A stretch of 64,000 nucleotides of DNA from Candidatus Aenigmatarchaeota archaeon (GCA_016187395.1 JACPJV010000039.1:5663-69662); one strand, 5' to 3'; shown: positions 1,838 through 62,189, counted from the stretch's first letter. The notes: a model not told the origin generated them from the sequence alone. Translations and numbers: made by a program.

Positions 1838-2060
1838 TATAGTGCTGCAAGGAATACAATGAGGAACTCCGTTCCTCATGTACAGCAGAAGCTTTGCTTC
1901 TGCTTGTAAATCAGGATTAGTCAGATATGATAATTCCTTGCGCACTACAAGGCGAATCAGAGATTCGCCTGTACAGCAGAAGCTTTGCTTCTGCTTGTAT
2001 ATGTGAAACAAGGATTATAAATATCCGACGTAGTCGGGATTAATTCCTTGTTTCACTATA
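1838..2060. repeat. composite hairpin repeat cluster (family F1, TATAGTG...CACTATA)
   Basis: TATAGTGCTGCAAGGAAT...ATTCCTTGCGCACTA encloses the perfect hairpins ATGAGGAAC/GTTCCTCAT and CAGCAGAAGC/GCTTCTGCTTG. A second unit ends GTTTCACTATA. Confidence 0.85.
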
Positions 2061-2104
2061 AATGCGTATTCGCGTTGCCTTTCGGCAACGCGAGGTGTGT
2101 GACG

Positions 2105-2497
2105 ATGGCGGTGATGGACACGGATATCCTGGTTGCATTCTTGAGAAAGGATGTGAATGCCAAGAAAAAAATAGAAAGCATGGTACAGCTCGGAATAAAG
2201 CTGTCAACTACATCTATAACAGCGGCAGAGCTTTTCAAAGGGGCATATAAATCAAGGGATGAAGACGCTGTTAAAACCGTTTATGAGCTGCTGGTTTCTA
2301 TGGAGGTTCTCGATTTCGGCATGGAAGCTGCTAATGTTGCAGGGAAAATCTCCTCGGAACTGGAGAAAGGCGGGAGGAAAATTGGCTCAATGGATACTAT
2401 GATAGCAGCGATTGTTATTTCGCATGGAGAATCCATTATAACCAGAAATGAAAGGCATTTCGGAAGAATTCCGTACCTTCATCCGGAGAAATGGTGA
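2105..2497 (+). CDS. vapC: PIN-domain ribonuclease toxin VapC
   Basis: Start moved to the ATG at 2105 (MAVMDTDILVAFL). PIN acidic residues are present (D at N-terminus, E, D, and the C-terminal SIITRNERHF pattern). Confidence 0.85.
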   Translation: MAVMDTDILVAFLRKDVNAKKKIESMVQLGIKLSTTSITAAELFKGAYKSRDEDAVKTVYELLVSMEVLDFGMEAANVAGKISSELEKGGRKIGSMDTMIAAIVISHGESIITRNERHFGRIPYLHPEKW

Positions 2498-2506
2498 AAT
2501 ATTAAA

Positions 2507-2773
2507 TCATTTTTCCCTCCAGTTTACTTCAGCTTCTTTCAGGAACCCTGTTTCAACCATATGGTCGATCTCTGCGTCTTGCAACCCGTATTCGCGAAGG
2601 TCCTCTCGCCTAAACCTTGTTTCCCTTTCCATGAGCGATAGCATCGCTAGTTTCTCTTCAGGCGGATTTGGCATCTGTTCAATCATCCTTCGCATTTTGG
2701 AAATTCTTCTCACTTGATAAACTAAATGCATGTCTATAAAGAAAGGGAGAAAAGTTATATGCGTGCTTTTCAA
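2507..2773 (-). CDS. hypothetical small protein (start uncertain; ATGs at 2731, 2695, 2686)
   Basis: ORF only. The track start is TTG. The charged helical C-terminal part looks protein-like. Confidence 0.3.
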   Translation of the reverse strand: MKSTHITFLPFFIDMHLVYQVRRISKMRRMIEQMPNPPEEKLAMLSLMERETRFRREDLREYGLQDAEIDHMVETGFLKEAEVNWREK

Positions 2774-2775
2774 TT

Positions 2776-5452: not shown

Positions 5453-6859
5453 TCAAGAATTCAGCTTCATGAATTTTGTGTTTTTCAACAAAGTTTCGTA
5501 ACTATTTCCGGTCATAGAGCATATTTTCTGCAGGAAATCCCTGGCTATGCCTTCGAATTGCACAAATGCTTTTGAGCCTATAAGTTCTATGCCGTGCGCA
5601 ATTATCGAATTATCGCGAATACGCACGGATCCCAAAAATCGCTTCAGGTCGTCAAAGGATTTTCCTTTCCACAATTCGTCTTGAAGCAGGGATAAGATTA
5701 TGTGACCGTCTTTGATGCCTATCTCTGCAGGCACGATTCTCTCTGTTCCGTATAGTTTTTTCGTCAACTCACCATATTTTATCTCTATTTCTGCAATCTT
5801 GCTGTACATAGGCTGGGAGGTGGTGATTCCATGCGTGCTCAGCCTGTACTGGGAAATCAGTTCCAGAAGCCGGTATAACCTGGTAATGGAATCTTCCTGC
5901 CGGTTCACTTCCTTTCTCCGCAACGCATTAAGGTACATGTCGATGAGCAGGTGAACAACAAAATCTTCATTTTTCAGGTTCTCCTCAAATTTCTGCCCGG
6001 GCTTAAGATTCGCCAGAAATTTCAATACCGCAAGATTATTTGCTATTTGCGCATGCTCAAACCTGATTCCGTATTGCCTTAATTTTCCCATCAATTCCTC
6101 CAGCTTTTTTTCAGCAGCTATGTAATTGAATGCATCCCACTGATCGTAGCCTTCAGCAAGCAGCGCCTTAATTTCGAATATTCTGGGATCTGCCACTTTT
6201 TTGCACAGGTCTCTGAATAAAATCGCTGCGGAATTAAACGAATACGTGTTGAACAGATAGGTTGCATGGTTATTCTCAAGCTCGCCAAAAACTTCATACG
6301 GATTTCTTACCCTTACAAGGGTTTCTGTTCCAGGCAGCCCCCGTTTTATTTCATCGATCCATTCCTCGTCAATGTAGACTATATCAAAACCAAAAAACGA
6401 TGCCATTATTCCTGCGCTCGCGGACATTATGCGCTTGCCTCTTGTCAGGTCTACGGCAACGCGCTTGCCTTCAAACAGCGGAAACCTGTCCTTTATTTTT
6501 CCATAAATTTCCGCCAAATCCATTCCAGAATATTCTATATCATCAATTTCATAATCCTCTCTTTTCAGACTTGCTTTTTGAATGATAAAATCAAGAAAAT
6601 AATTTCTGAACTCCTTTGTGCAGATAAAATAAACTTTCTTAGGTTTTAGGGCATTTATGAGGAGAATATAGTATCTTTTTTCCAACCCAGCCGGGATTAT
6701 CAGCCAATCGTACCGCGACATGCCCATTTCAGAGACTTTTTTTATAAGGGTTTTTTCTGAAATTTCATGCATATTTTCCCAATAAAGGACTTCGGCTTCA
6801 TTAAAATGACCTTTAAGGACAAGTTCTTTCCATTTTTCCCGTAACTGCCCAAGTTCCAT
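5453..6859 (-). CDS. CARF-domain protein with C-terminal HEPN-like motif (Cas02710-like), orphan
   Basis: N-terminal Rossmann-like pattern (WLIIPAG...VYFICT...VAVDLTRGKRIMSASAG). The C-terminal RIRDNSIIAHG fits the R-x4-6-H HEPN signature. ATG start at 6859; the track start is TTG. Confidence 0.6.
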   Translation of the reverse strand: MELGQLREKWKELVLKGHFNEAEVLYWENMHEISEKTLIKKVSEMGMSRYDWLIIPAGLEKRYYILLINALKPKKVYFICTKEFRNYFLDFIIQKASLKREDYEIDDIEYSGMDLAEIYGKIKDRFPLFEGKRVAVDLTRGKRIMSASAGIMASFFGFDIVYIDEEWIDEIKRGLPGTETLVRVRNPYEVFGELENNHATYLFNTYSFNSAAILFRDLCKKVADPRIFEIKALLAEGYDQWDAFNYIAAEKKLEELMGKLRQYGIRFEHAQIANNLAVLKFLANLKPGQKFEENLKNEDFVVHLLIDMYLNALRRKEVNRQEDSITRLYRLLELISQYRLSTHGITTSQPMYSKIAEIEIKYGELTKKLYGTERIVPAEIGIKDGHIILSLLQDELWKGKSFDDLKRFLGSVRIRDNSIIAHGIELIGSKAFVQFEGIARDFLQKICSMTGNSYETLLKNTKFMKLNS

Positions 6860-6927
6860 GGAAAAGATGGTAAACAAATTGTTATAAACCTTGTTTCTCA
6901 ATTAAATGCATGCCTCCGTAGCTCAGT

Positions 6928-7057
6928 TCCAATCCCTTTCAGAAGGCGAATGGACGTTCCTGCAGGAACGTCAGTTTGCAAACGAAAGAAAGGTCTTGGA
7001 GAACCCCAAAGAAAGGGAACGTTGCTTCGCAACGATAATATGGGATTGGAGAGAAAT
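6928..7057 (+). other. tRNA intron 1 (D-loop, non-canonical position, about 130 nt)
   Basis: A 9-bp closing helix (6928-6936 with 7042-7050) is flanked by unpaired triplets and a 3-bp helix, which is a relaxed BHB-like arrangement. Contains a copy of hairpin element E. Confidence 0.6.
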
Positions 7058-7460: not shown

Positions 7461-7733
7461 ACCCACGCCTAAAGGTGTGGGTTTCTCAGAGCACAAGCAA
7501 GAGCGAAGCTCTTGCGGTGCAGCATGAATCTCCGATTCATGCTTGCAAAGCATGTCGGAAGCCTTCTGTATCATACAAGCAGGAGCATATCTCCTGCTGT
7601 ACAGGAGGAACGTTGTTCCTCCTTGTATCCTCCGCTTACAAGCAAGAGCGAAGCTCTTGCTGTACAGGTGAACCTTTGGTTCACCATGTAAAAGCGGAGG
7701 ATTTATGTGGAGGCTTCCGCCTATAATCCACAG
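7461..7733. repeat. composite hairpin repeat cluster (family F1)
   Basis: At least seven consecutive perfect hairpins, for example CAAGCAGGAGC/CTCCTGCTG, AGGAGGAAC/GTTCCTCCT, GGTGAACC/GGTTCACC. An outer stem ATCCTCCGCTT/AAGCGGAGGAT encloses two of them. Confidence 0.8.
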
Positions 7734-22195: not shown

Positions 22196-22250
22196 GCAAA
22201 AGAAAGCCATATTATTCATCCTCTATCTAAAGATGGAGGCTTTCTTTTGC
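22196..22250. repeat. 13-bp-stem hairpin related to family F1 (possible bidirectional terminator)
   Basis: GCAAAAGAAAGCC...GGCTTTCTTTTGC followed by TTGTAATCAGG. The same TACAAGCAAAAGAAAGCC string occurs at 61725-61742. Lies between convergent genes. Confidence 0.5.
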
Positions 22251-25865: not shown

Positions 25866-25964
25866 TATATAGCAAACCAACTTGCTATATGGCGTTTATT
25901 AAGTTGGTTTGCTATATGGGAAAGCACAAATGACATGTTCCGTTTCATTTGTGGTTTCACTATA
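25866..25964. repeat. family F1 hairpin modules (two)
   Basis: TATATAGCAAACCAAC...GTTGGTTTGCTATAT and GCACAAATGA...TCATTTGTGGTTTCACTATA. The last heptamer contains the stop codon of the ATPase gene. Confidence 0.8.
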
Positions 25965-28983: not shown

Positions 28984-29080
28984 TATAGTCATGCAAGAAA
29001 GAAATTAGTATTATATTTTCTTGCTGACTATATGTGAACCAAATAGTATAATATCCTGATTATTTATTTGGTTCACTATA
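28984..29080. repeat. family F1 hairpin modules (two)
   Basis: TATAGTCATGCAAGAAA...TTTCTTGCTGACTATA, followed by TGTGAACCAAATA...TATTTGGTTCACTATA. Confidence 0.8.
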
Positions 29081-32825: not shown

Positions 32826-33521
32826 GTGATTAATGTGAAAATGATTGAAGAAAAGGAAATGAGAGGAATGAATAGAAAAGGGAATGCAGCCGTGCATGCC
32901 CTGTCAAAATCAGGCAGCCTGCTTGTTATTGCAGTTCTTGCATTCGCGTTCCTCATGCCTCCTGCCCATGCAGAAAAAGGTGTTGGCCTGAAATGGTTTA
33001 CAGAGAACGAGAATGTTGCAGAGGAGAGCATGCACTGCATAGACTATGGCATCTACAACCCATGGAATACCGACGTAAATGCTGTTCTGAAGGTTTCTGG
33101 TGAATTTTTGCAGGTTGCAGAGATGAAGAAAAGCGAACCTGTTTTCGTTAAGGCAGCCACTGCAAGCTCTGCTGCGCTGCCGTCCAGAATCTGCTTCAGA
33201 ATAGGCGACACCTATGAAGAAGAATGCCTGATAGGCAACTGGTTTTGCGACAGGACATGTCCAAAGGAGCAGCGTGAATATGCAGGGCAGGTCGTAGTCG
33301 AGGAAGCTCCGGAAGAAAGCACTGTGGGTGGCACAGGCGCCATGGTCACGTTCAGCGTTGCCGCGCCGCTGCGGCTTGTCGTGGAATGCAGGGATGAAAA
33401 ACGCGACTTAACGCCGCTTTATTATATTGGCGGCATCGCAACAGGTACGGTGATGTTCACGGTTGCGAAGAAATACGATCCTGAAAAAAAGCGGAGAAAG
33501 TCTCGTACCGTGATACAGTGA
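32826..33521 (+). CDS. signal-peptide protein B2 with C-terminal TM and basic tail (true start probably ATG 32841-32868)
   Basis: Colinear with B1. The track start is GTG. Confidence 0.7.
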   Translation: MINVKMIEEKEMRGMNRKGNAAVHALSKSGSLLVIAVLAFAFLMPPAHAEKGVGLKWFTENENVAEESMHCIDYGIYNPWNTDVNAVLKVSGEFLQVAEMKKSEPVFVKAATASSAALPSRICFRIGDTYEEECLIGNWFCDRTCPKEQREYAGQVVVEEAPEESTVGGTGAMVTFSVAAPLRLVVECRDEKRDLTPLYYIGGIATGTVMFTVAKKYDPEKKRRKSRTVIQ

Positions 33522-33540
33522 GCAGGGAAGTATCATACCC

Positions 33541-33915
33541 TGGTTTACAAGCAGGAACGAAGTTCCTGCTGTACATGGAAAACTGAAAGTTTTCCAGTAC
33601 TGATGAACCTTTGGTTCATCATGTACAGAATGAGCTTTGCTCATTCTTGTATTCCTTGCATCACTATGACATGCTTCTGATATGAACCACCGCATAAATG
33701 CGGTGGTTTCTTGAAGCATGGCATGCCAAAGAAGTTCGATATCTTATCCTCTGCTTATCTGTGAAGAACCGAAGGTTCTTCAAGACCTCAAAGAAGCTTT
33801 GCTTCTTTGCAGGAAAGCAGAGGTTTTAGAACTTCTTTGAGCATAAAGATATGATGCACAAAGAACTTCGTTCATTATAGTGAATCAATGAAATGACCCC
33901 GACAAGATTTCATTG
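33541..33915. repeat. composite hairpin repeat cluster (family F1, largest)
   Basis: Four tandem perfect hairpins, then ATTCCTTGCATCACTATG, further hairpins including the GCAGGAAAGCAGAGGTTTTAGA module, and a final TATAGTGAATCAATGAAAT...ATTTCATTG. Confidence 0.85.
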
Positions 33916-36625: not shown

Positions 36626-36795
36626 GTGCACCTATACTCCCCTGCCTAAAGGCAGGGGTTTCCCTGTGTGCACAGCATCTCGAAAGCCCCGGTATCTTAC
36701 AAGAAGGAGCAAAGCTCCTTCTGTACAGGAGAACTCTTCGAGTTCTCCTTGTATCCTCTGCTTAAAAGCAGAGGTTTTAGAGGGGCTTTCGAAGA
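36626..36795. repeat. composite hairpin repeat cluster (family F1)
   Basis: CCCCTGCC-TAAA-GGCAGGGG, then the outer stem TCTCGAAAGCCCC/GGGGCTTTCGAAGA enclosing three perfect hairpins in a cloverleaf-like layout. Confidence 0.8.
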
Positions 36796-40892: not shown

Positions 40893-41043
40893 TATAGTGA
40901 TGCAAGGAATACAAGAATGAGCGAAGCTCATTCTGTACAGCAGGAACTTCGTTCCTGCTTGTAAATCAGGATATAATACTTCCTTGCTCACTATATGTGA
41001 AACCACAAGTATGATATCCTGTTTATTTTGTGGTTTCACTATA
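40893..41043. repeat. family F1 full unit (about 150 nt)
   Basis: TATAGTGATGCAAGGAAT, two hairpins, AAATCAGGAT...CTTCCTTGCTCACTATA, then TGTGAAACCACAA...TTGTGGTTTCACTATA. This is the inverted counterpart of 61942-62100. Confidence 0.85.
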
Positions 41044-42318: not shown

Positions 42319-42661
42319 TCTTGAAGCAAAGCCTTGGAAGAGCGAAGCTCTTCAAGGTCCCGAAGAAGCTTTGCTTCTTTGCAGGAAAGCAGAGGTTTTA
42401 GAGGGCTTCCGAAGATATAGTGAAGCAAATTAATAATCCCGACTAGAAATTTGCTTCACATATAGTGCGCAAGGAATTATCATATAGCGATTTATTCCTT
42501 GCAGCACTATAAATATGCAGCGAGGGCAAACTGGTTTTGTCCCAAAGCCAACACTACCAAAAGAGATAAATTAGCAGATACAGCAGGAGCTTCGCTCCTG
42601 CTTGTAGTGCGCAAGGAATTATTATATCAGACTAATCCTATTTATTCCTTGCAGCACTATA
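42319..42661. repeat. composite hairpin repeat clusters (family F1, two adjacent)
   Basis: Contains a 40-nt block identical to 33791-33830. Modules include TATAGTGAAGCAAAT...ATTTGCTTCAC and TATAGTGCGCAAGGAAT...ATTCCTTGCAGCACTATA (the latter twice). Confidence 0.85.
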
Positions 42662-42716
42662 TCCAAATTGTTCCGACGGTGATAGCTTGCCCGTGTACCA
42701 TGACAAGAGTCCGGCG

Positions 42717-45680: not shown

Positions 45681-45714
45681 AAGATTTAGCTGCCATTTTA
45701 TACTCCTGAGAATT

Positions 45715-46464: not shown

Positions 46465-46477
46465 TTTCCTGCGCCTA

Positions 46478-46666
46478 TCACCTTTCAATTTTTAGCTGCG
46501 GAATTCTCGAGAAGTCCGAGATATTTCTTGTTATTATTTTTTCATCTTTCGCAATGCAGATAGAGGCTATCAGGACATCGAAAACATCTATGATTCTCCC
46601 TGTTTTACGATTTTTCGCGAATATGTCAGCTGCTATAGTGCTCCAAGGAATAAATCGGCATATCAT
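46478..46666 (-). pseudogene. PIN-domain toxin remnant (C-terminal half only)
   Basis: Encodes ...IIDVFDVLIASICIAKDEKIITRNISDFSRIPQLKI, a PIN C-terminal pattern. The N-terminal half with the first catalytic Asp is absent, and the upstream sequence is an F1 repeat. Confidence 0.6.
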
Positions 46667-46785
46667 ACTTCCTTGGGCACTACAAGCAGGAGCGAAGCTC
46701 CTGCTGTACAGCAGAACTCTTCGAGTTCTGCTTGTATATGTGAAACAATGAAATCATATCGGGATTATTTCATTGTTTCACTATA
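46667..46785. repeat. family F1 cluster
   Basis: ACTTCCTTGGGCACTA, two perfect hairpins, then TATATGTGAAACAATGAAAT...ATTTCATTGTTTCACTATA. Confidence 0.8.
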
Positions 46786-46825
46786 TCCTCAATCAGGTTT
46801 TATCCTTTTGTTCCATTTCATTATC

Positions 46826-53800: not shown

Positions 53801-56800
53801 GGCGAGAAGGAGCTCTCGTTGAATACCGGGTTCAGGTTGTCGTTCGTCTGGTTCACGCCGAAACCTGTCATCAGCGCATTTGAAAGCTGGGTGTATGTTT
53901 CATTAAGGACTGTAAAGTCTCCATGGCCGTTCCAGATTACGCGCGCATTGCGCGACCAGAAGTAATCCGTGATACCTACCGACACCGATGAGGCAGTTTT
54001 TCTGATGTAGTTTTCATTGTCGCTGTTGTCAGATATATCAACAGAAGGTGTGCCGCTTATGCTCTGCGACCTGTTTAAGAATACCTCTCCTACAGCATTC
54101 GCAGTGGAATTGCTGTAGAAGCCGGCGAAAAGAATGCCGTTCTGGCTCAGGTAATCAGTCCCGTCGCCGCTGCCAACTGTATTTGTAAATATGCCGCTTG
54201 AGTTGCGCCATACGACGTTGTTGAAAAAGCCGTCCTGACCGAAGATTTTTGTGTCAAAGTATGATACCCAGCTTGACGACTCGCGCGAGCTTGTATTTAT
54301 CTCAAGCATGAAGTAAGGCGCCTGCACGAAGAATGCATAGGTGATGTTATAATCTATTGAGCACGTTCCCATCGTGCCTTTCACGCGGTAGCGCACCATG
54401 ACAGGGCCGTTGTCTATAGTAACAGTTGGAGCAGTATCCTGCGCTGCGCCGCACGTTCCCGCAGCTTTCTCCACCTGCGGCGTAATCTGCATCGGGTTGT
54501 TGCCGCGCAGGTCGCTGCTGTTGCCGAGCTTGCTGAAGGCTGACTGCATCACGCCGCCCGCAGAGTTGTTCAGCGTGACGTTATAGCCAAGGGCGCTTAT
54601 TGTGTAATACGTACTGACGTTCGTGATGCTCATGTTTGGACTGTAGTAATTTCCTGAGCCGCGGTCGCTGCGGGCGTAATGAATAAAGTATGTTCTGTTT
54701 TCATTTTTGCCAAGGCTGTCCACGAACACGAGGCGCGAATGGTTGACGCGGTCGCCTCCCTGATAGAGGTCGTATATTTGCACAGGTATCTCAAGGTCGT
54801 GAGTGCCATTGAAGATTGTCAGGCGCACGGAGTTGTTGTGCGTGCCGTAGGTGTAATTTACCAAAACATCGACAAAATCCCAGTAGCGTTCTGTTGTATT
54901 AGGTTCGCGCACATTCAGCTCCAGGCGGAAGGGGAATGAGCTGCCGTCAGCGTCAGTAAAGTTGCTCTGCCAGAGGCGGCCGACGTAGAACACCTGGCTG
55001 CGCTCTGTCGTGCCTATGGTCACGTTCCACCAGCCGTATGTGCCATTAATGACGTAGGTGTAGAAGAACTCTGCGGCTGAGTCGTTTGACATCGCTGCTG
55101 CTGATGCTTTCACAGAACCACTGGAATCCTTGATAGTGATTCGCGGCGCGATTTTTCCTGTATAGTCACCGAGCGCCAGTATCTTGACTCTGCTGCTGTT
55201 TGCGAAATAGCTGTTGCTGACGTTGCTGTCGTTGACGTAGGTCTTGATGCTGTAGAGATTCGGGTAAATGCCTGTGACGTTTCTTTTTGCGGACTGCACG
55301 CTGTTGCCTGCCGAATCATTAGCCCAGAAGCTGTAGTTGTGCGTGCCGAATGTGAGGCTCTTGGTCACGTTGCTGTATGCGCTTATGCCTGTTCCATTCT
55401 TTGGCGCGCTCTCGTTAACGCCATTAAATTCCAGCAGCACGGCGTCTATGGGCAGCAGGCTGTCTGAAACCGTCACGTTCAGCACGATTGTTGCGTTGCT
55501 TGTGTTCGTGCCGTCCGCCGGAGTCGGGCTTGTGAAAGAAACAGTTGGCGCGGTTATGTCCACGGTGATGTTCCTCATTGCCGAATCCCTGTTGTTGCCT
55601 GCCGTGTCATTTGCCCAGAGCTTCACGCGATGCGTTCCTTCGCTCAGCGTTGTGGAATTATAACAGCTGCCTGTGTTTCCGCTCTTCGAAGACTGGGCGC
55701 TGCTGTTGCTGCCATCTATTTCAATGCGGCACGAGTCCAGAGGCAGCAGCGCATCCACGTAGCTTGCATTAAACGTCTGCGCCTGCGTCGAGGTATTCAA
55801 ACCTTCAGCAGGCGTTGGCGAAGCCAGCGTAACGTTGGGCGCGGTTGCGTCAACGGTTATATTCCGCAGTTCGCTCTGGTTCAGATTGCCAAGCGTGTCG
55901 TTGAACCAGAATTTGTAGACGTATGTTCCATCGGCAATGGAGGAATTGGTGAAGTTGGAGTAGATGCTAAGACCGCTGGCGTTCTTTGCCGTGCTGATGT
56001 TGGCTCTGTTCCACTCAAATAGCACAGAATCTATGTACAGGAAATTGTCTGTGATTGTCACGTTGAACGTATAGCCTGCCGTGCTTGTATTAATTCCGCT
56101 TGCAGGGGTTGGCGAGACGTAGGTGCCCTGCGGCGCTGTCGTGTCAATAGTGATAGTCGTGCTTGCATTCGCTGCATTGGCAGCGCGGTCCCTGCCTTCA
56201 ACGCGGATCGTATATGTTCCATCGGACTGGCTTGTCAGATTGTATCTTGTGATTGTGCTATTTGTTGTGTTGCCTTCGCCATTGAGCGTGCTATCCACGT
56301 ACACGCGGTACGCGAGGTCTGTGAATATGTTGTCGGTTATGTTGAATGTAACTTCAGGCGTGGTGTCTGTCGTATTCGTGCCTGCGGCAGGGCTTGTTAT
56401 TGTGGATGTCGGGTTTGTGTCGTCCACTGTAATGTTAATCGGAGTAGAGTTGGCGGAATTGCCTGCGCGGTCGCGGCCTTCGACACGGATTGCGAAGGTG
56501 CCATTGGATTGTGCAGTCAGATTGAACTTCGTGACTGTGTTGTTTGTGGTGTTGCCCTGGCCATTCAGGGCGGTATTGACATAAACACGGTACTCAATGC
56601 CGTTCGTGCCGGCGAAGACGTTGTCTGTGATGTTAAACGTGATTTCAGGCGTCGTATCTGATGTATTCGTGCCGTGCGCAGGGCTTGTTATTGTGGACGT
56701 GGGTACGGTATCGTCTACTGTTATGTTGATGGATGTTGTGTTGGCAGCATTCCCTGCGCGGTCTCTTCCCTCAACCCTTATGGCATAAGTGCCGTTGGCC

Positions 56801-59800
56801 TGCGCTGAAACGTTCGCCTTGGTAGCTGTGTTGTTCGTGGTATTGCCTTCTGCGCGGATGGTGCTATCAACATAAACGCGGAATTCTATGCCATTTGTGC
56901 CTGCGAACACATTATCAGTGAAGTTGAATGATACCTCAGGCGTTGTGTCTGATGTGTTCGTGCCTGCGGCAGGGCTTGTTATCTCGCCGGCAGGCGCTGC
57001 AGTGTCTATGGTAATCGTCGTGCTCGCGTTCCTGGAATTCCCGGCGCGGTCCCTTCCCTCCACGCGCACCGTGTATGTGCCATCTGCCTGGCTTGTCAGG
57101 TTGTACCTTGTGATTGTGCTGTTTGTGGTGTTGCCTTCGCCATTGAGCGTGCTGTCAGCATAGACGCGATAAGCGAGGTCTGTGAATATGTTGTCGGTTA
57201 TATTGAATGTTACTTCAGGCGTCGTGTCTGTCGTATTGGTTCCGTTTGCAGGGATTGTCATCGTGATGTTGGGCAATGTTGCGTCAATGGTTATACTCTG
57301 CAATCCGCTCTGGTTGACGTTGTTCAGCGTGTCGTTTGCAAAAAACTTGTAGACGTACGTGCCATCAGCAAGCGAGGATTTGGTGACATTTGAATACACG
57401 CTTATGCCGCTGCTGTTCTTTGGCGCGCTTTCATTCGCTCTGTTCCATTCAAACACAACAGCGTCAATATTTGTCGCTGCGTCTATAACAGTCACGTTGA
57501 ACGTGTACGCAGTCGTGCTGGTGTTCAAGCCTGAGGCAGGCGTGGGCGAGACAAAGGTTATGGCAGGCCCTGAAGTGTCAGGATTCAGAACCGTAAAGTT
57601 CCTTCTCGGCGTGTTGTTCACATTGTTCGCTGTGTCGTTGAACCAGAAGGTATAATTGTGCGTGGCTATTGAAAGGCCTGACGCTGTGAAGTTTGCATAC
57701 ACGCTTCTTCCTGTGCCGTTCGTGGAGGCGGTATAGTTCGTGCTGTCCAGCTCAAAGAGAACCACGTTAATGTTTGTGAGAGTGTCGTCTATCGTAGCGT
57801 TGAACGTCCATGTAGTGTTTGTTGAATTTTCGCCATTTGCAGGCGTGGGAAATACATAACTGCCTGATGGAAGGGCTGTATCAACAGTCATTGTGCGAAG
57901 CGCGGTTATGTTAAGGTTTCCTGCCTGGTCTATGGCGTAAACGGAATAATTATGAATCCCGTTCGACAAGCCTGTGAAATTCCTGTAAACCGTATTCTGC
58001 GTTTCCGCGCTCCTCATCGAGGCGTTGATTTCCTGTTCTGAAAGAGCGCGTGACCAGATTTTCACCTCGTCTAGGGTTGCATTTGCCACGTTAGTTCCGA
58101 CTTGTGCACCTCCAATTCCTACTGAACCTGTCGATACATTCAAGAGTCCGCCGAAAGCAACCGAAGCGTCTACCACACCATTAACATAAATCATCTTATT
58201 GGTGCCGTTCCATACGGCGGCTACATGATACCATTGATTGTTGTTTAGTGAAGATGAGGAAGACAAAGTTTGAAGAGATGTTTCATTTCTTGTTTGAAAT
58301 TGAACGGTTCCTGTGGAGGTCGCCACCACTCTGAAAGGATTGACAGTTGAACCTGTGTCTTTAGAGATGTATACATCATTCCCAACAGCAGAATATCTTA
58401 TAACCCAAAACTCTATTGTGAGCGCAGATAAAATATTGAATGATGAATGATTGCTGACAACTGCCCTACCTGTGTCTGAACTATCGTATTCGACAAATCT
58501 CAATCCTTTTCCATAATAACCGGTTGTCAGATTTCCTTCACTTGAAACTCCTCCAAATGAAGTCAGGTTGTTTCCATATGTTGAATTGTCGAATGTTCCA
58601 TTGCCGTATTCAAAAGACAAATACATGACCAGCAACCTGTTGAAATCAATGAACGCCGATGTGTTGTAGAGATTGTCCGAAACGCTGGCATTGATGAACG
58701 CCCACGTCTGCGTTGTGTTCGTGCCGTGTGCTGGGGTCTGGCCCTGGAAGGTTATTGCTGGCGGGATGTTGTCTACGATTATGCTGTTGTTTAGCGGAGT
58801 CGAATTTGTCAAGCCATCTTCTGCCCATGCTGTCACGGTTATGTTGTCGCCGGGCTTGTAGGATACACCCGGACCGCCAAATGCAGAGCTGTTTATGCGG
58901 TTGAATGTTGAATTGACTACAGTGCCGCTGGCAATGCCGGTGTAGTTCAGCTGGCAACAGAACACGCTGTTCACCGACCAGTTGAAGTAGACGCTCAGGC
59001 TGCTCGCCAAGTTATCGGTTGTCGTTGTGTTCGCAGTTATGTAGTCATTTGCATTCGTGATGTTGAACAACGGCTGGGTAACTGTAGGCGGTGTCGTATC
59101 CACGGTCACAGTCCTCAAAGGCGTTATGTTCAGGTTTCCTGCCTGGTCTATGGCGTACACGGAATAATTATGCCTGGCGTCAGAAAGCCCTGTGAAATTC
59201 GCAAACACGCTTCCCGTGCTGCCGTAGAAGCGGCTGTTCATGCTTGCATTTATTTCCTCTGCGCTCAGTGCCCTGCTCCAGATTCTCACTTCGTCAGAAG
59301 TCTGGTTTGAACCAGTATTAATGTTATCTCGTCCACCAAGAAAAACACGCCATTGGGACAAGTTGAGCAAGCCGCCCAAGGCTCTGCTGTTTTTTATGTT
59401 CCCGTCAAGATATACCAACATGGTCGTTCCGTTCCACGTTCCAGCTATATGATGCCATTTCCCATCGCCGTCTATCCCTGCGTTTGAAGAAAGGGACGTC
59501 GAGCCTGTCTGGTTTATTATGGTAAGTTGTATTTCATTTGTTCTATCCGAAGTCAACTCCCATGCCTGTCTTTTTCCAACTATATATTTTACAAGCGTTG
59601 TGTTCTCATGCATAATGACCCATGCTTCGAGCGTCAACCCTGTCTGGAAATAGAAAGGCGTGGCATTGGTCGCATTCAGGCCGCAGCTTGAGCACGAGCC
59701 GCTTATATTCACTATGAAGCCGTTTCCGTAATAGCCTGCGACGATGTTGTTTGCGCTTGCCTGCGTGGCGTATGTTGCTTTCAGCTTGTATGTGGAATTG

Positions 59801-60381
59801 TCATAAACCGCAATACTATCGTAGCTTTCAAATGACCAGTAGCCAATCAGAGAATTGTTGAAGTCTATGAACATTGAGGTGTTTGAGTCGTCTGTCACGG
59901 ATGCGTTGATTTCAGCGTAGGTTTTGCTCGTGTTTGTGCCGTCTGCTGGCGTCAAGCCCTGGTATGAGATGGACGGAGGCACTGTATTGCGCGTGAAGTT
60001 TACTGTCGCGCCTGTTGCGTTCTCATCAGCGCTGCTTGTATTTGACCTTATGTAAGCGGTAAAATTATGCCTGCCGTCTGACGAGAAGTTTATCTGCATC
60101 CATGCGACAGTGCCGCTGAACGGAATCAACGAGAAGTTCTGCCTGTTGCCGCTCTGGTTTGTCCATTCTACCCTTGTCCCGACTGTATCTGTAAAATTAA
60201 TCGTCTCGTTGCTTGTTATATTGACGGTGAAGTTGTTGCGGTTTGTAAAGGAGTTTTCAAGAGGCGTGGGTGTTGCGTAATCAACGCTCGGCGCAGCGAA
60301 GACAGGCATTGCCAGCACGAGCAGCGCCAGCAGCATCAGTAGTGCTACGCTGCTGCCTGCTGTTTTGCTGTTCCTTTTCAT
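50836..60381 (-). CDS. giant surface glycoprotein/adhesin (3181 aa): two LamG-like domains, many Ig-like domains, Thr/Gly stalk, two TM segments with cytoplasmic coiled coil, C-terminal Cys/Asp-rich motif
   Basis: Signal peptide and an uninterrupted 9.5-kb ORF. The LamG block is about 80 percent identical in protein to the one in the 2167-aa protein. Very many N-x-S/T sequons. C-terminal CSDGVDNDRDGKTDYPKDLGC. Confidence 0.9.
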   Translation of the reverse strand: MKRNSKTAGSSVALLMLLALLVLAMPVFAAPSVDYATPTPLENSFTNRNNFTVNITSNETINFTDTVGTRVEWTNQSGNRQNFSLIPFSGTVAWMQINFSSDGRHNFTAYIRSNTSSADENATGATVNFTRNTVPPSISYQGLTPADGTNTSKTYAEINASVTDDSNTSMFIDFNNSLIGYWSFESYDSIAVYDNSTYKLKATYATQASANNIVAGYYGNGFIVNISGSCSSCGLNATNATPFYFQTGLTLEAWVIMHENTTLVKYIVGKRQAWELTSDRTNEIQLTIINQTGSTSLSSNAGIDGDGKWHHIAGTWNGTTMLVYLDGNIKNSRALGGLLNLSQWRVFLGGRDNINTGSNQTSDEVRIWSRALSAEEINASMNSRFYGSTGSVFANFTGLSDARHNYSVYAIDQAGNLNITPLRTVTVDTTPPTVTQPLFNITNANDYITANTTTTDNLASSLSVYFNWSVNSVFCCQLNYTGIASGTVVNSTFNRINSSAFGGPGVSYKPGDNITVTAWAEDGLTNSTPLNNSIIVDNIPPAITFQGQTPAHGTNTTQTWAFINASVSDNLYNTSAFIDFNRLLVMYLSFEYGNGTFDNSTYGNNLTSFGGVSSEGNLTTGYYGKGLRFVEYDSSDTGRAVVSNHSSFNILSALTIEFWVIRYSAVGNDVYISKDTGSTVNPFRVVATSTGTVQFQTRNETSLQTLSSSSSLNNNQWYHVAAVWNGTNKMIYVNGVVDASVAFGGLLNVSTGSVGIGGAQVGTNVANATLDEVKIWSRALSEQEINASMRSAETQNTVYRNFTGLSNGIHNYSVYAIDQAGNLNITALRTMTVDTALPSGSYVFPTPANGENSTNTTWTFNATIDDTLTNINVVLFELDSTNYTASTNGTGRSVYANFTASGLSIATHNYTFWFNDTANNVNNTPRRNFTVLNPDTSGPAITFVSPTPASGLNTSTTAYTFNVTVIDAATNIDAVVFEWNRANESAPKNSSGISVYSNVTKSSLADGTYVYKFFANDTLNNVNQSGLQSITIDATLPNITMTIPANGTNTTDTTPEVTFNITDNIFTDLAYRVYADSTLNGEGNTTNSTITRYNLTSQADGTYTVRVEGRDRAGNSRNASTTITIDTAAPAGEITSPAAGTNTSDTTPEVSFNFTDNVFAGTNGIEFRVYVDSTIRAEGNTTNNTATKANVSAQANGTYAIRVEGRDRAGNAANTTSINITVDDTVPTSTITSPAHGTNTSDTTPEITFNITDNVFAGTNGIEYRVYVNTALNGQGNTTNNTVTKFNLTAQSNGTFAIRVEGRDRAGNSANSTPINITVDDTNPTSTITSPAAGTNTTDTTPEVTFNITDNIFTDLAYRVYVDSTLNGEGNTTNSTITRYNLTSQSDGTYTIRVEGRDRAANAANASTTITIDTTAPQGTYVSPTPASGINTSTAGYTFNVTITDNFLYIDSVLFEWNRANISTAKNASGLSIYSNFTNSSIADGTYVYKFWFNDTLGNLNQSELRNITVDATAPNVTLASPTPAEGLNTSTQAQTFNASYVDALLPLDSCRIEIDGSNSSAQSSKSGNTGSCYNSTTLSEGTHRVKLWANDTAGNNRDSAMRNITVDITAPTVSFTSPTPADGTNTSNATIVLNVTVSDSLLPIDAVLLEFNGVNESAPKNGTGISAYSNVTKSLTFGTHNYSFWANDSAGNSVQSAKRNVTGIYPNLYSIKTYVNDSNVSNSYFANSSRVKILALGDYTGKIAPRITIKDSSGSVKASAAAMSNDSAAEFFYTYVINGTYGWWNVTIGTTERSQVFYVGRLWQSNFTDADGSSFPFRLELNVREPNTTERYWDFVDVLVNYTYGTHNNSVRLTIFNGTHDLEIPVQIYDLYQGGDRVNHSRLVFVDSLGKNENRTYFIHYARSDRGSGNYYSPNMSITNVSTYYTISALGYNVTLNNSAGGVMQSAFSKLGNSSDLRGNNPMQITPQVEKAAGTCGAAQDTAPTVTIDNGPVMVRYRVKGTMGTCSIDYNITYAFFVQAPYFMLEINTSSRESSSWVSYFDTKIFGQDGFFNNVVWRNSSGIFTNTVGSGDGTDYLSQNGILFAGFYSNSTANAVGEVFLNRSQSISGTPSVDISDNSDNENYIRKTASSVSVGITDYFWSRNARVIWNGHGDFTVLNETYTQLSNALMTGFGVNQTNDNLNPVFNESSFSPASPNDSAAVTCNSFWTDNIELDTATITVNATNYNALLTQSLIGQNSTRVNATINASTLEAGGGSCIITVTDVAGLSNSTTIRFNVTDVSAPSFNAVNNTPNVSAELDPNRAIAVTANISEFTNISLVRLEYKEVNASAFTLVTMTNSTGLPYTNLWNASFTPANESTWQYRVFANDTLGNNATSATTNLTISLDTTWVSGPESFGTLQVVLNTNGSLGNVTVNNTGDLSLDFKVTSDWEDKNEIFYNGTAEGTDGYSFTLAPGVNSTFNITVTAKTSERSDSLVITIDALNSSATPSSATSNATITSIAGGPFMSVAIAEYNISVTQNDTGIVLNATVQNRGNESATSAWLEWRLPSGWSVSNGSQNRSIGNLSVNAITSNRVVVSIASTADTGTKTITAFAGSAENKTGTDSKSVVVSALSANTTTTVTTTTTTTVSSGGGGGAAPAAAGGLTPEEKEKLLKTAEKFELVRGMDTAFQLSFGNPFDGRLENVRISVEGVLSRYVKIEPEIVRTIERGQTIPIKITIETPRYFTAGKHVLEFTIEGIINQSRKISETAEVIKYTKLVDKRTVTLVVFDVPPGEVLGRLNESLAVPEYMRSMGLGTRTAESLAARIRASIEDRDYNAAREAIEQMLQLKGQSQELAAAIGSLEINVEYARERSFDIRQSSRLLNLAKASAERENFQLAVERAKEGHLTYALETKGAFNLGFYLGENWLYVGAMAVALIVAGIILFVQIRLFVIRKSLRGLKKEQGILLGMIKELQVDAFRKKKMSIDEYKTALEQYEDRLSKVVQRSIELETMKKNVLHFTSRRITLLQERENLLRMVQDLQRKYVELRIVETRVYENRMHSFASRISEIEEQIALADAERALKKKFKFLPEMAKEAGVKKVPPPALTYVVVFAIIIGVAGMVLLNNPGIAGSVLHEASNFLHKAPQCSDGVDNDRDGKTDYPKDLGCADETDDEYIDKPPYFFFPYSPDNSTNHSLP
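56125..57270 (-). repeat. four tandem about-96-aa coding repeats (pattern A-B-B-A)
   Basis: Unit is ITSPAAGTNT-DTTPE(V/I)-FN-TDN-F...RVEGRDRAGN. The first and fourth units are nearly identical to each other, as are the second and third. Confidence 0.8.
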
Positions 60382-61152: not shown

Positions 61153-61284
61153 GTCTTTGCACCATGAAAATAGGCGTGGATGTTCTCATGGACTGCCCTT
61201 CGGGCAATAGGTCTGCTTTTCTTCAGATGCCTTTCTTTGCTCATTTCGTAGCTGTACTTCATACTTCCACCTCTTTCTTTTTCA

Positions 61285-61590
61285 TCATGAGCCACCACCT
61301 GCCTGGCTACCCTGCGAGATCCCGGGCGCTTCAGGCAATCCAAAGGATTCTGCCATCCCCTTTACCGCGGATTCCGGATGCTTCAGCTTGTAGATGCGCC
61401 TGCGGCTGTCTCCTGGGTCAAGGCGAATCTCAAGCCAGCCGTGCTTGTTCAGATGCGAAAGAATGAGGCTCACGAGGGCAGAGGGTTTCAGCGCATACTG
61501 CGCCTGCGCATAGGTGAATTCCTTGTCGCTGTAGAGAGAATAGAGTAGAGAATAGCGCTGCATCAGCCATTTTGGCAATGGTTTTGTCAC
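61285..61590 (-). CDS. hypothetical winged-helix-like protein (start GTG 61590 or ATG 61563)
   Basis: The ALVSLILSHLNKHGWLEIRLDPGDSRRRIYKL pattern resembles a wHTH recognition helix plus wing. The C-terminus is low complexity, so a frameshift is possible. Confidence 0.45.
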   Translation of the reverse strand: MTKPLPKWLMQRYSLLYSLYSDKEFTYAQAQYALKPSALVSLILSHLNKHGWLEIRLDPGDSRRRIYKLKHPESAVKGMAESFGLPEAPGISQGSQAGGGS

Positions 61591-61827
61591 TAAAACTACC
61601 GCCTGACCACACTTTTCAGATTGTGTTAGATCATTATTGCATATCAGTTATGCAAGTTGTATAGATATTATACTGGATTTTGCCGGGATATATAAAATTA
61701 TCGGTGCTGTGAAGCTGGGTTTACAAGCAAAAGAAAGCCTCTGGCTTGAGTCAGAGGATGGATGCATAGGATTGCGTTTACTTAGGGTATGATAGATAGG
61801 AAGCCTCGGTCAAATCGATGAGGCTTG

Positions 61828-61906
61828 AAAGGCGAATGGACGTGATTGAATGGACATTCCTGCAGGAATGTCGGTTTGCCTTCGCTGCAGGAACTTCAGT
61901 TTGTAA
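61828..61906. repeat. hairpin element E (with internal duplication)
   Basis: GAAAGGCGAATGGACGTGATTGAATGGACATTCCTGCAGGAATGTCGGTTTGCC...CTGCAGGAACTTCAGTTTGT. Confidence 0.7.
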
Positions 61907-61941
61907 CTCGAGGCTGTCGGGCTAATGAAGCAACCACCCTA

Positions 61942-62189
61942 TATAGTGAAACCACAAAATAAACAGGATATCATATTTGTGGTTTCACCGATAGTAAGCA
62001 AGGAATTATTATATCCTGATTTACAAGCAGTAACGAAGTTCCTGCTGTACAGAATGAGCTTCGCTCATTCTTGTATTCCTTGCATCACTATAACTGAGCA
62101 TTTCTACAGAGCCCTGATTTACAAGCAGAAGCAAAGCTTCTGCGGTACATGAGGAACGGAGTTCCTCATTGTATTCCTTGCATGACTAT
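61942..62189. repeat. family F1 cluster (full unit plus second partial unit)
   Basis: Reverse-oriented counterpart of 40893-41043, followed by a second pair of hairpins ending ATTCCTTGCATGACTATG. Contains the stop codon of the gene at 62186. Confidence 0.85.

Follow-up and report, generated by a model that had tools for sequence, protein, structure and literature searches.

Structure-conserved hairpin repeats of an Aenigmatarchaeal genome as candidate REP-like mobile DNA elements

Hairpin clusters and their building units

The 64-kb stretch of DNA analysed here (the window), from a Candidatus Aenigmatarchaeota archaeon, contains ~30 small hairpins and ~15 big modules, all of them intergenic (Table 1). 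They make up ~3% of the window and occur in both orientations, as the initial annotation stated, and they take up at least a quarter of the intergenic space. The ten clusters and the hairpin at 22196-22250 that it listed are likewise present as described, apart from two starts: the cluster given from 46667 begins at 46634, where the first TATAGTG module begins, and the one given from 33541 begins at ~33513. Genes bracketed by the clusters include FEN1, FKBP, a Na+/H+ exchanger, a subtilase and LysRS. These bracketed ORFs were considered as autonomous elements and rejected, as all encode housekeeping or secreted proteins. A Pfam search of 50 ORFs of the window returned no transposase of any kind, and no tRNA-like genes were found. 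The elements sit inside operons, supply stop codons and break short-read assemblies of these MAGs; together with their intergenic share, this makes them matter for Aenigmarchaeota genome annotation and binning.

Table 1. Hairpin elements of the window, with nested units
Feature	Position	Strand	Details
Composite, both insertion sites filled: module A, module B, two dimers	1838..2060	+	Neighbours: vapB-like ORF 1604-1829; PIN/vapC gene 2105-2497
Module A of 1838..2060			TATAGTGC[T]GCAAGGAAT...ATTCCTTGCGCACTA; dimer 1854-1909 nested between 5' arm and loop
Second dimer of 1838..2060	1945-2000		At A-B junction
Module B of 1838..2060	2000-2060
Monomers in 1838..2060	1854-1883(-), 1880-1909(+), 1945-1974(-), 1971-2000(+)		From covariance model
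Second composite family, C/D type	7461..7733	.	Hairpin CCCACGCC-TAAA-GGTGTGGG; outer stem GGAAGCCT/GGCTTCC
Dimers of 7461..7733	7491-7548 (variant); 7573-7628 (canonical)
Hairpin C in 7461..7733			ATCCTCCGCT..AGCGGAGGAT; dimer 7636-7691 inserted at TA of TAAA loop
Related long hairpin	22196..22250	+	ACAG..GCAAAAGAAAGCC...GGCTTTCTTTTGC..TTGTA; between convergent genes; flanks family-like, interior different
Diverged A-B composite, no dimers	25866..25964	+	Terminal CTATA provides stop codon of minus-strand gene 25960-27372
Empty 97-nt A-B composite	28984..29080	+	Divergent intergenic region; TATAGTCA[T]GCAAGAAA...TTTCTTGCTGACTATA, then TGTGAACCAAATA...TATTTGGTTCACTATA; 76-81% identity to other composites
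Reversed module A with nested small-hairpin tetramer 33545-33652	33513..33670	-	DNA fold z = -9.1; tetramer bulge order 5',5',3',3' = dimer inserted in central TA of another dimer
Further hairpins	33685..33915	.	Includes AACCACCGCA-TAAA-TGCGGTGGTT
C-type hairpin of 33685..33915			CCTCTGCT..AGCAGAGG; inserted variant dimer 33762-33809; 33777-33830 is 93% identical to 42349-42402
TATAGTG module	33876-33915		Abuts start of next gene
C/D-type composite	36626..36795	.	Hairpin CCCCTGCC-TAAA-GGCAGGGG; outer stem CGAAAGCCCC/GGGGCTTTCG encloses dimer 36697-36754 and empty C hairpin 36755-36774; 80% identity to 7544-7644
Composite A[dimer]B	40893..41043	+	Dimer 40909-40964 nested in module A; A-B junction CACTATATGTG empty
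Mixed cluster	42319..42661	.	C/D-type remnant with variant dimer 42337-42379; reversed empty B-A composite 42416-42511; solo monomer 42578-42607; empty A module 42606-42661
Composite A-[dimer]-B	46634..46785	+	Dimer 46680-46737 at A-B junction; fold of four consecutive hairpins, DNA fold -45.1 kcal/mol vs -13.2 in shuffles, z = -11.9; aligns at 73-76% to composites of three other species
Inverted near-identical copy of composite 40893-41043	61942..62093	-	Unrelated gene context
Module A with nested dimer	62113..62189	-	Abuts stop of gene 62186-62662(-)

The units come in two size classes: small ones measure 2 x 24 nt, and the big modules, bounded by TATAG...CTATA, measure 2 x ~48 nt. Members of both classes have a base of 3 bp (TAY/RTA), a single extrahelical A/T, a stem whose sequence varies freely but stays complementary, and a conserved apex. 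Two 24-nt hairpins make up the basic unit, a dimer with the layout TA-CA[A]G-N7-loop-N7-CTG-TA-CAG-N7-loop-N7-CT[T]G-TA, in inverted orientation with the bulges facing the outer sides. With hairpins coded F for a 5' bulge and R for a 3' bulge, the order of adjacent small hairpins is FR in 53 cases, RF in 0, FF in 2 and RR in 1. Stem bases are TAC/GTA and TAT/ATA, with TGC/GCA, CAC/GTG or CGC/GCG in variant dimers, and the elements are always flanked by TA or TATA. Only 5-7 terminal bases are constant while the stems vary, and particular stem pair combinations recur among dimers. In the big modules this design comprises the 3-bp base, a single A/T bulge, a stem that varies with compensation, and the conserved loop AATCNGGAYATG.

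A single bulged nucleotide is present as first described, but it is not always T: it reads as T or as A depending on the strand, and the side on which it lies is correlated with the polarity of the loop (46 vs 18 and 42 vs 14), with ~1/4 of loops flipped relative to the bulge. Loops of the small hairpins are nearly all 3 nt, many with a GCGAAGC apex, which Hirao and colleagues reportedly described as an exceptionally stable DNA minihairpin. The cloverleaf-like layouts proposed initially prove to be nested insertions, not one designed fold.

Several familiar classes were considered and set aside. Integron attC sites have R''/L''...L'/R' boxes, occur once per gene cassette and adjoin an integrase. 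The clusters lack RYYYAAC/GTTRRRY cores and form arrays flanked by ordinary genes on either strand, and none of the ORFs tested encodes an integrase. A CRISPR array was rejected because the units are inverted and abutting, and the variable parts are palindromic, not unique spacers between identical direct repeats. Terminator and promoter (TATA) readings were also weighed and dropped.

Compensated stems and lineage distribution

The window has 23 perfect hairpins in which a 3-nt loop is closed by 9 bp or more of stem, whereas 30 dinucleotide-preserving shuffles of it contain 0.47 on average and 3 at most; all 23 fall within the reported intergenic clusters. TATAGTG/CACTATA occurs 20 times against 4.3 expected, a count reached in 0 of 100 shuffles. 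A covariance model, with training monomers picked by flanks alone and not by stems, recovers 22 full-length monomer copies in the window (E < 1e-4; 11 per strand), each within a reported cluster; further copies exist elsewhere.

Small-hairpin copies were selected solely by the flanks ACAG...CTTGT, the stems playing no part in the choice. Across the window and related loci (391 kb), this yields 123 copies, 95 with perfect stems and 20 with one mismatch; 28 of the perfect stems are distinct. In a set of 60 distinct sequences, pairing holds for 97.6% of cells and falls to 31-47% when the stem partners are shifted. Double-sided changes affect 130 cells compared with 36.8 in shuffles, none of 500 shuffles being as high. 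The compensated stem variation reported initially is thus real, and the covariation is significant. Stem mismatches cluster at the loop-closing pair. For the big modules, a hand-written structure laid on a MAFFT alignment gives 35 double-sided cells against 10.7, again reached in 0 of 500 shuffles; RNAalifold on the same alignment returns no structure, the arms being misregistered by MAFFT. The column-4 A is unpaired in 20/30 big modules, and the loop motif is conserved. Structure, not sequence, is what stays conserved in this hairpin family.

Conserved loops combined with compensated stems are a classical RNA signature, and the elements could be functional structured RNA modules of mRNA untranslated or inter-cistronic regions, acting in stability, processing or protein binding, with selection on RNA folding preserving the stems and DNA spread serving only as the vehicle. 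Elements lie inside operons and beside gene ends, for example between vapB and vapC, and must therefore be transcribed; bacterial REP, BIME and Correia elements do have secondary RNA roles. Nevertheless, this explanation is improbable. G-U pairs are almost absent from the small-hairpin stems (8/720 cells), 3-nt loops suit DNA hairpins better than RNA hairpins, and the flipped quarter of the loops also speaks against it. Dimers are strand-symmetric, composites occur in both orientations relative to flanking genes, and positions are not conserved between species. Rfam gives no match at gathering score over the whole window and, at E <= 1 (33400-47000), just two sub-threshold chance matches. With no orientation bias, no Rfam match, strand-symmetric units, 3-nt loops and rare G-U pairs, the dedicated structured ncRNA family that the initial annotation had listed among its readings is not upheld. 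RNA-level effects on read-through transcripts, if any, would be secondary.

All 48 genome-scan matches (loci L001-L048) lie in Aenigmatarchaeota/DPANN MAGs, and the family is found only in a subclade of Aenigmatarchaeota, in ~15 species. Between the window and these loci of other species, DNA-level similarity is found only in the elements themselves. A relative with a 67%-identical DinB carries a 760-nt intergenic stretch packed with the same hairpin families. No family match was obtained in a relative with a 60%-identical DinB and 54% GC, nor in 746 kb of control metagenome contigs carrying DinB relatives (best matches ~55% identical), and a dimer-pattern scan of viral contigs gave none. As noted at the outset, the repeats match no described repeat or RNA family, and no description of this REP/BIME- and MITE-like family was found in the literature searched.

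Insertion, nesting and copying

Three types of site are seen both empty and dimer-filled, each filled site with one extra TA. Site 1, at the arm/loop border of module A, is empty at 42461-42511 and filled at 40893-40995, 1838-1948 and 61990-62092. Site 2, the A-B junction CACTATATGTG, is empty at 40989-41000 and filled at 46680-46740 and 1944-2003, and site 3, in the loop of hairpin C, is empty at 36755-36774 and filled at 7627-7704. All three are unpaired in the folded host module. New copies arise at TA dinucleotides, and insertion favours unpaired loops or junctions of older copies, building nested mosaics.

Whole composites are also copied as units. The element at 61942-62093 is 96.05% identical over 152 nt to 41043-40892 (inverted) in unrelated flanks, and the homology stops exactly at TATAG...CTATA; 62113-62189 is 96% identical to 1915-1839 (inverted). 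Element positions differ between species in orthologous intergenic regions. AR5 and RIFCS carry a composite in one such region, of which the SMAG_U8133 ortholog is only 76 nt, and one gene upstream the presence/absence is reversed. Short-read contigs stop inside or just before elements, as does a 3.7-kb Logan contig that breaks within composite 40893-41043. AR5 and RIFCS do not differ at the elements of their loci, and this pair therefore reveals no recent polymorphism. Apparent indels between the near-identical relatives L132, L133 and L134 are scaffold gaps (runs of N), and the near-identical genomes compared (AR5/RIFCS; L132/L133) provide no very recent empty/filled pair.

The empty and filled sites, 96%-identical composites, presence/absence differences, assembly breaks, restriction to one lineage and the occurrence of an IS200-type Y1 transposase in hairpin-bearing relatives (see below) favour the REP/BIME-like or MITE-like element mobilised in trans that was among the initial readings. 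The elements are, with good confidence, lineage-specific, non-autonomous mobile DNA hairpins. The opposing explanation, in which non-mobile palindromes arise in place and stay perfect through template switching or foldback synthesis, or are retained as cruciform or protein-binding sites, is very improbable. It would accommodate loops in both polarities and mismatches concentrated at the loop-closing pair, and quasi-palindrome correction via intrastrand template switching yields compensated changes in one step. However, the constant flanks, bulge and apex positions and the recurrent stem pairings indicate common descent of the copies; the strict FR order and the existence of empty and filled sites also count against it. 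Dispersed near-identical copies, up to the 152-nt pair in unrelated places, largely refute it, and it survives as a stem-maintenance mechanism alone: template-switch correction may help to keep stems perfect. A purely foldback origin, also suggested initially, does not account for the constant parts that the copies share, nor for the stem combinations that recur.

The TA at the flanks admits a different mobile element, namely conventional MITEs of an IS630/Tc1-mariner-type DDE transposase, with TA as target-site duplication, ends of the form TA-CAG.. and TA-TAG.., and the big-module loop motif as a double-stranded transposase-binding site, inverted at both ends. The flanks are always TA and filled sites gain one; the termini YAG...CTR beside TA resemble the TA-CAGT ends of Tc1/IS630 elements; and the loop motif AATCNGGATAT lies ~19-35 nt from each A-B composite end, inverted. 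Archaeal IS630-derived MITEs with TA duplication exist, such as Sulfolobus SM1. Yet the putative terminal inverted repeat varies freely and is complementary within one end, not between ends. A sequence-reading DDE transposase needs no within-end complementarity, which therefore counts against this origin. At 50 nt for dimers and 24 nt for monomers, the units offer very little length for rigid duplex DNA to form a paired-end complex, and none of the 81 ORFs scanned encodes a DDE transposase. The extra TA at filled sites fits a target-site duplication, but the same sequence would arise from TA duplication, blunt T^A insertion or insertion 3' of TA; the variant dimers (TGC/GCA, CAC/GTG, CGC/GCG) fit blunt insertion between two TAs better than duplication. 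We consider IS630/Tc1-mariner MITEs quite unlikely.

A candidate enzyme and comparison with known systems

An IS200-type Y1 transposase, a search suggested by the initial annotation, is absent from the window and present in related hairpin-bearing genomes. A phmmer search with an IS608 TnpA sequence as query identified a gene in the hairpin-bearing locus L044, which Pfam confirmed as Y1_Tnp (PF01797, E = 5.7e-20) and whose Y motif is YVKDQG. It has ~190 relatives, several named Aenigmarchaeota by NCBI, and the transposase occurs in at least three hairpin-bearing relatives (co1_151, SMAG_U8133 and UBA10154). An identical protein is found with several different flanks, with SMAG_U8133 and UBA10154 among its hosts, and the IS is therefore multicopy. 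Its LE/RE hairpins have 9-10-bp perfect stems and 3-nt loops, and the stems differ by compensated changes. The end hairpin, CCACCAGTC-TGT-GACTGGTGG, has no bulge and no TAY/RTA base. No hairpin of this type lies in the window; a solo one sits inside a small-hairpin array of another species (L016, 6647-6667). The 459 kb sampled contain a single Y1 gene, IS200-type with its own ends, and no RAYT (class 2 TnpA_Y1). IS200/IS605 TnpA binds folded ssDNA hairpins only, and inserts 3' of a short target, which must be single-stranded, without duplication (PMC5027513).

The elements are probably moved as single-stranded hairpins. The moving form would be folded single-stranded DNA, and an enzyme specific for hairpins would recognise it in trans; the best candidate for this enzyme is the IS200-type Y1 (HUH) transposase, multicopy in related hairpin-bearing Aenigmatarchaeota. 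If propagation were limited to well-paired copies, this would explain the perfect stem compensation. As a whole, the proposal of structure-defined mobile DNA elements, an archaeal counterpart of REP/BIME/REPIN with Y1 as the best candidate enzyme, stands at an even balance. The specific Y1 step, which we infer, falls slightly short of that. Counting against it, no transposase lies in the window, a single Y1 gene occurs in the 459 kb sampled, and the units are strand-symmetric with inverted hairpins, whereas IS200/IS605 ends are direct and on one active strand.

Another host or element-encoded activity could move mobile hairpins. All the mobility evidence fits it as well, no transposase adjoins any cluster, the bracketed genes are housekeeping, and the family hairpins differ from the IS200 ends. 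Organellar hairpin elements behave similarly in nesting and merging, show short duplications or none, and have no known enzyme (PMC4478555, PMC2800124). Such a mover is nonetheless unlikely: a multicopy ssDNA transposase specific for hairpins already resides in this lineage and is the simpler candidate, and an unnamed enzyme predicts nothing specific.

With the Y1 candidate, a more far-reaching reading can be put forward tentatively: a first REP/REPIN-like system in Archaea, built of minimal 24-nt bulged ssDNA hairpins, persistent and vertically inherited, moved in trans by an IS200-type Y1 or a domesticated derivative, and self-nesting to ~3% of a reduced DPANN genome. Its enzyme would recognise nothing but the base of 3 bp, the lone extrahelical nucleotide and the apex of the hairpin, and its preferred integration sites would be the single-stranded loops of copies already present. 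Across dozens of natural stem variants only base, bulge and apex stay constant, which makes the elements unusually informative about the features read by the mobilising machinery; its target, to judge from the nested insertions, is unpaired DNA. Overall, the initial observation is confirmed and its interpretation partly supported.

Among known systems, organellar elements (Allomyces double-hairpin elements, sponge mitochondrial RHEs and yeast mitochondrial GC clusters) are likewise tiny mobile single or double hairpins in intergenic regions of a reduced genome, with stems kept as structure, merging and nesting, and no known enzyme (PMC4478555, PMC2800124). Their genetic system and sequences are unrelated, and the analogy is one of behaviour only. 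The IS630/Tc1-mariner MITEs (Correia, RUP, Nezha and Sulfolobus SM1) are also small, intergenic, non-autonomous, hairpin-forming and TA-flanked, and the composites of 97-223 nt fall within their size range. However, the terminal repeats of the archaeal family are kept in structure rather than sequence, its units are far smaller, and no parent IS is known.

Extrahelical T residues near the base are a feature of IS608 end hairpins, which the family hairpins recall. Hairpins are the recognised feature of IS200/IS605 and PATE-type MITEs alike, and the resident Aenigmarchaeal IS200 ends share the 9-10-bp stem, 3-nt loop and compensated LE/RE differences. The data are consistent with insertion next to a short AT-rich motif that leaves no clear duplication, and insertion sites unpaired in the host module would fit a single-stranded target. 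In contrast, the family hairpins are unlike the IS ends in sequence, carry a bulge absent from the Aenigmarchaeal IS200, are inverted rather than direct, and do not show the IS target T(A/T)TAAAT at their left flanks.

The REP/BIME/REPIN systems share short (20-40 nt) extragenic imperfect palindromes in high copy number, with unit orientation set by an asymmetry, in the archaeal family a bulge. Both also have inverted pairs that build mosaic clusters and are copied as doublets, a lineage-specific family persistent across species, and a hairpin structure likely recognised by a Y1 HUH enzyme. The differences are that the host is an archaeon, that stems are far more variable and units only 24 nt, that one inverted arrangement only is used (FR, nested FFRR, never RF), that copies insert within each other's loops, and that the 459 kb sampled contain no RAYT, which in REP systems is a single-copy gene flanked by its REPs. 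REP palindromes have a conserved GTAG or CGTC tetranucleotide at one end (PMC3733652), a tag that the archaeal family does not carry. RAYT/REP systems have been reported in Bacteria only, and the only TnpA reported in Archaea is that of IS200 subclass 1.1 (PMC6006769). As REP/RAYT-type repeats are regarded as bacterial, an analogous long-lived DPANN family would extend the phenomenon to a second domain, and would prompt the question whether the TnpA of an ordinary IS200 is able to drive REP-like repeats.

Anatomy and compensation of the repeat units

The repeat family in the window is defined by structure, dimeric and associated with TA; it has been copied to new places and nests in the unpaired parts of older copies. 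Every repeat cluster listed in the initial annotation was found, and the TATAGTG/CACTATA motifs are abundant, as it had claimed (20 occurrences against 4.3 expected). The window contains 23 hairpins with a 3-nt loop and a perfect stem of 9 bp or more, whereas 30 shuffles that preserved dinucleotide content averaged 0.47.

The small unit is a 24-nt hairpin flanked by TA dinucleotides. It opens with C, A, an extra A (T on the other strand) and G; a 7-8-nt arm and its complement then enclose a 3-nt loop, and CTG closes the unit. Because the flanking TA is paired as well, the stem has a TAC/GTA base of 3 bp, then one extrahelical base, then 9-10 bp. The variable arm almost always has A at position 5, and its closing pair is C-G. 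The unit is polar, with a 5′ bulge (A) accompanying RAA loops (46 vs 18) and a 3′ bulge (T) accompanying TTY loops (42 vs 14). With hairpins bulged on the 5′ arm denoted F and those bulged on the 3′ arm denoted R, neighbouring small hairpins are ordered FR in 53 cases, FF in two, RR in one and RF in none. This near-invariant order defines the true unit as an outward-bulge dimer, TA-CAAG..CTG-TA-CAG..CTTG-TA, which reads alike on both strands. The stems differ between the two hairpins of one dimer, and certain stem pairs recur. The single tetramer, FFRR, is a dimer inside the central TA of a second dimer.

To remove the bias toward perfect hairpins, copies were selected solely on the flanks ACAG and CTTGT, 17 or 19 nt apart. 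Among the 123 copies obtained from the window and related loci (391 kb), perfect stems occur in 95 (28 distinct) and a single mismatch in 20, often in the pair that closes the loop. The proposed stem compensation is borne out across 60 distinct sequences, with 97.6% of cells paired and 130 cells altered on both sides; column shuffles gave 36.8, and none of the 500 reached 130. Sliding the partner columns lowers pairing to 31-47%. A covariance model made from this 60-sequence flank-chosen alignment recovers 22 full-length copies in the window, equally divided between the strands (11 each) and all within the reported clusters.

The TATAGTG...CACTATA modules follow the small-unit design on a larger scale. 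Oriented by their loop, they consist of TAT, an A that is bulged (20 of 30 modules leave it unpaired), G and a variable, compensated 8-17-bp arm, followed by the conserved loop AA(A/T)RAATC-NGG-AYATG, the complementary arm and ATA. Compensation also holds here, with 35 cells altered on both sides; the shuffles gave 10.7, and none of the 500 reached 35. The big modules likewise form F-then-R pairs, whose members are called modules A and B. The A-B composite, 97 nt when empty, folds as consecutive hairpins (z ~ -12). A second composite family combines the hairpin CCTCYGCT-TAAA-AGCRGAGG with an outer stem.

Insertion, copying and distribution

Three kinds of site are present in the window both empty and dimer-filled. 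All three are unpaired in the folded host module, and each filled site holds exactly one additional TA. The footprint is ambiguous, since TA duplication, blunt insertion of ACAAG...CTTGT into T^A and insertion 3′ of TA yield identical sequence; variant dimers with bases TGC/GCA, CAC/GTG or CGC/GCG are a better fit to blunt insertion between two TAs. At a larger scale, two composites in unrelated gene contexts share 96% identity over 152 nt, with homology ending exactly at TATAG...CTATA, and a further pair also shares 96%. Such pairs indicate that whole composites are copied as units.

Presence also varies among species. In GW2011_AR5 and RIFCSPLOWO2_01_FULL_48_10, a composite occupies an intergenic region that is only 76 nt long in the SMAG_U8133 orthologue; SMAG_U8133 has a composite one gene upstream, where GW2011_AR5 has none. 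Roles at the RNA level, on read-through transcripts, are possible and look secondary, because orientation bias and positional conservation are both absent. Short-read contigs end within or just ahead of elements.

The family is confined to one archaeal subclade. A genome scan with the dimer pattern found 48 loci, all in Aenigmatarchaeota/DPANN MAGs of ~15 GTDB species, including GW2011_AR5. DNA similarity between the window and these loci is confined to the elements. In a relative whose DinB is 67% identical, all families crowd a 760-nt intergenic stretch. No copies occur in 21 kb of a more distant Aenigmatarchaeote (DinB 60% identity, 54% GC), in 746 kb of unrelated DinB-bearing metagenome contigs, or in a viral collection scanned with the dimer pattern. 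No Rfam family matches the elements, and full-text literature searches found no account of them.

Two further observations concern the relatives. GW2011_AR5 and RIFCSPLOWO2_01_FULL_48_10 are listed as separate species representatives and show stretches of 99-100% identity beside others of 70-94% (L005/L031, L027/L041 and L009/L029, paired loci from the scan), a mosaic that suggests recent recombination or shared contigs. Pyrimidine-then-purine hairpins, CTTTTCTT-nnn-AAGAAAAG, also recur and could be terminator-like structures or members of another repeat family.

Features of the window and of related loci (positions are in the window unless preceded by an L number, which denotes a locus of a related genome)
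Feature	Position	Detail
Empty/filled site 1		border of arm and loop in module A
Empty/filled site 2		A-B junction; empty CACTATATGTG, filled CACTA[CAAG...CTTGTA]TATGTG
Empty/filled site 3		hairpin C (second composite type), TAAA loop
Empty A-B composite	28984-29080	
FFRR tetramer	33545-33652	
Second composite family	7461-7733, 33750-33830, 36626-36795, 42319-42415	
Copied composite pair	61942-62093 and 41043-40892	
Further copied pair	62113-62189 and 1915-1839	
vapB-like ORF; PIN/vapC partner	1604-1829; 2105-2497	split by 223-nt hairpin composite
GC hairpin	2070-2093	between the same two genes
Gene with stop codon in element	25960-27372(-)	terminus CTATA, 25960-25964
Gene with stop codon in element	32826-33521(+)	terminus CAGTGA, 33513-33521
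Csm6-type CARF-HEPN gene	5453-6901(-)	
Giant ORFs	10212-16715(+); 50836-60381(-)	2167 and 3181 aa
Stretch common to giant ORFs	59237-59952 and 13429-12711	720 nt, 79% identity
Separate intergenic repeat	23244-23315, 24849-24972, 27395-27534, 28836-28973; also 6945-6990, 25750-25862, 61830-61903	hairpins GGCGAATGGAC...TGCAG...GTC, motif GGGGAGGGGCGGTGA
Possible replication origin	~28000-29200	
IS200-type IS	L044 5340-5975; L136-L151, L153-L158	target T(A/T)TAAAT, 8 nt, left hairpin CCACCAGTC-TGT-GACTGGTGG, tnpA, AATA, right hairpin, ~10 nt ending TTTATA
Minihairpin in left-end loop	L144-L149, L153-L158	
Minihairpin in right-end loop	L136-L143, L153-L158	
Solo IS-type hairpin	L016 6647-6667	within small-hairpin array
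tnpA, then 398-aa ORF	L152 2501-4530	ORF without recorded Pfam hit
Pyrimidine-then-purine hairpins (examples)	L011 5164; L021 900/1753/3774; L030 3611; L044 5245; L047 823	

Genomic setting

The gene content of the window is consistent with a DPANN archaeon and includes PCNA and DinB, archaeal ATPases of the KaiC-like and DUF234/DUF4143 kinds, Csm6 and PIN toxins, as well as two giant proteins of surface type; the 64 kb hold no tRNA genes, and none of 50 ORFs tested encodes a transposase. A composite and a GC hairpin separate the vapB-like antitoxin gene from its vapC partner, so the operon must be transcribed through the element or re-promoted downstream. Two genes have their stop codons inside element termini, and insertions thus abut or reshape gene ends.

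The giant ORFs, both with internal repeats, may encode surface proteins of a kind typical for DPANN archaea. The Csm6-type gene is accompanied by no visible CRISPR array and no further cas genes in the window. A separate intergenic repeat family, with 82-90% identity among copies, adjoins paralogous DUF4143 and DUF234 ATPase genes and PIN toxin pairs; the A-B composites at 25866 and 28984 begin immediately after copies of it. Where genes shift from mostly minus to mostly plus strand, cumulative GC skew reaches its minimum, and this region could be a replication origin; no Orc1/Cdc6 gene was identified.

Mobility and candidate mobiliser

We infer that the elements move as single-stranded DNA in folded form, with recognition by an enzyme specific for hairpins. 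Complementarity lies within each end, not between ends, and would not be required by a sequence-reading DDE transposase, were that the mover. The extrahelical base and conserved apex, the 3-nt small-hairpin loops with G-U pairs nearly absent, and the unpaired targets also point to single-strand mobility. The unpaired targets match what is known of IS200/IS605 TnpA, which binds folded ssDNA ends only, requires a single-stranded target and makes no duplication (PMC5027513). Propagation limited to well-paired copies would explain why so many stems are perfectly compensated.

The presence of a Y1 enzyme in the lineage adds to this argument. Cluster-bracketed genes in related loci are housekeeping genes. 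The initial annotation suggested looking for an IS200/IS605-type Y1 gene elsewhere in the genome; a phmmer probe found a Y1 gene in a relative, at L044 5395-5815, a locus of the hairpin-bearing bin ERP125453_co1_151 (Pfam Y1_Tnp, E = 5.7e-20). The protein family is compact (~190 proteins), and several members are labelled Aenigmarchaeota by NCBI. The identical protein lies next to several different flanking genes, which makes the IS multicopy; its hosts include UBA10154 and SMAG_U8133, in the latter of which hairpin loci are most numerous. These differing neighbours among assemblies suggest several active copies together with IS-mediated rearrangement or assembly chimeras.

The IS boundaries were set by flank comparison. 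Its end hairpins have a 9-10-bp perfect stem and a 3-nt loop, the geometry of the small family hairpins, and differences between left and right stems are compensated. A solo IS-type hairpin lies within a small-hairpin array of a relative; the window contains none. Some IS copies carry, in place of the TGT loop, TAGCGAAGCG(T), an 8-nt GCGAAGC minihairpin within the loop that resembles the loop-nesting of the repeat family. In locus L152, tnpA has its own right-end-like hairpin ahead of the 398-aa ORF, and a complete composite (big F, small F, small R, big R) lies ~200 nt past that ORF.

In contrast to the family hairpins, the IS ends lack the bulge and the TAC/GTA base, and the IS target is not found at the flanks of family elements. 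Given this mismatch and the strand symmetry of the units, we consider it somewhat doubtful that the mobiliser is specifically a Y1 transposase. The main alternative would be another mover, a situation with parallels in GC clusters and the double-hairpin elements of organelles.

The repeats flagged initially are genuine and were well characterised in that annotation. REP/RAYT systems are described as bacterial, and from Archaea only IS200 subclass 1.1 TnpA is reported (PMC6006769). The family is best filed with small palindromic mobile elements of the REP/BIME/MITE kind, and it is the first of this style that we can find for DPANN archaea. Several traits are unusual among such elements: the units are minimal in size, the dimers strictly have their bulges outward, copies nest in one another's loops, and one design is shared by two size classes.
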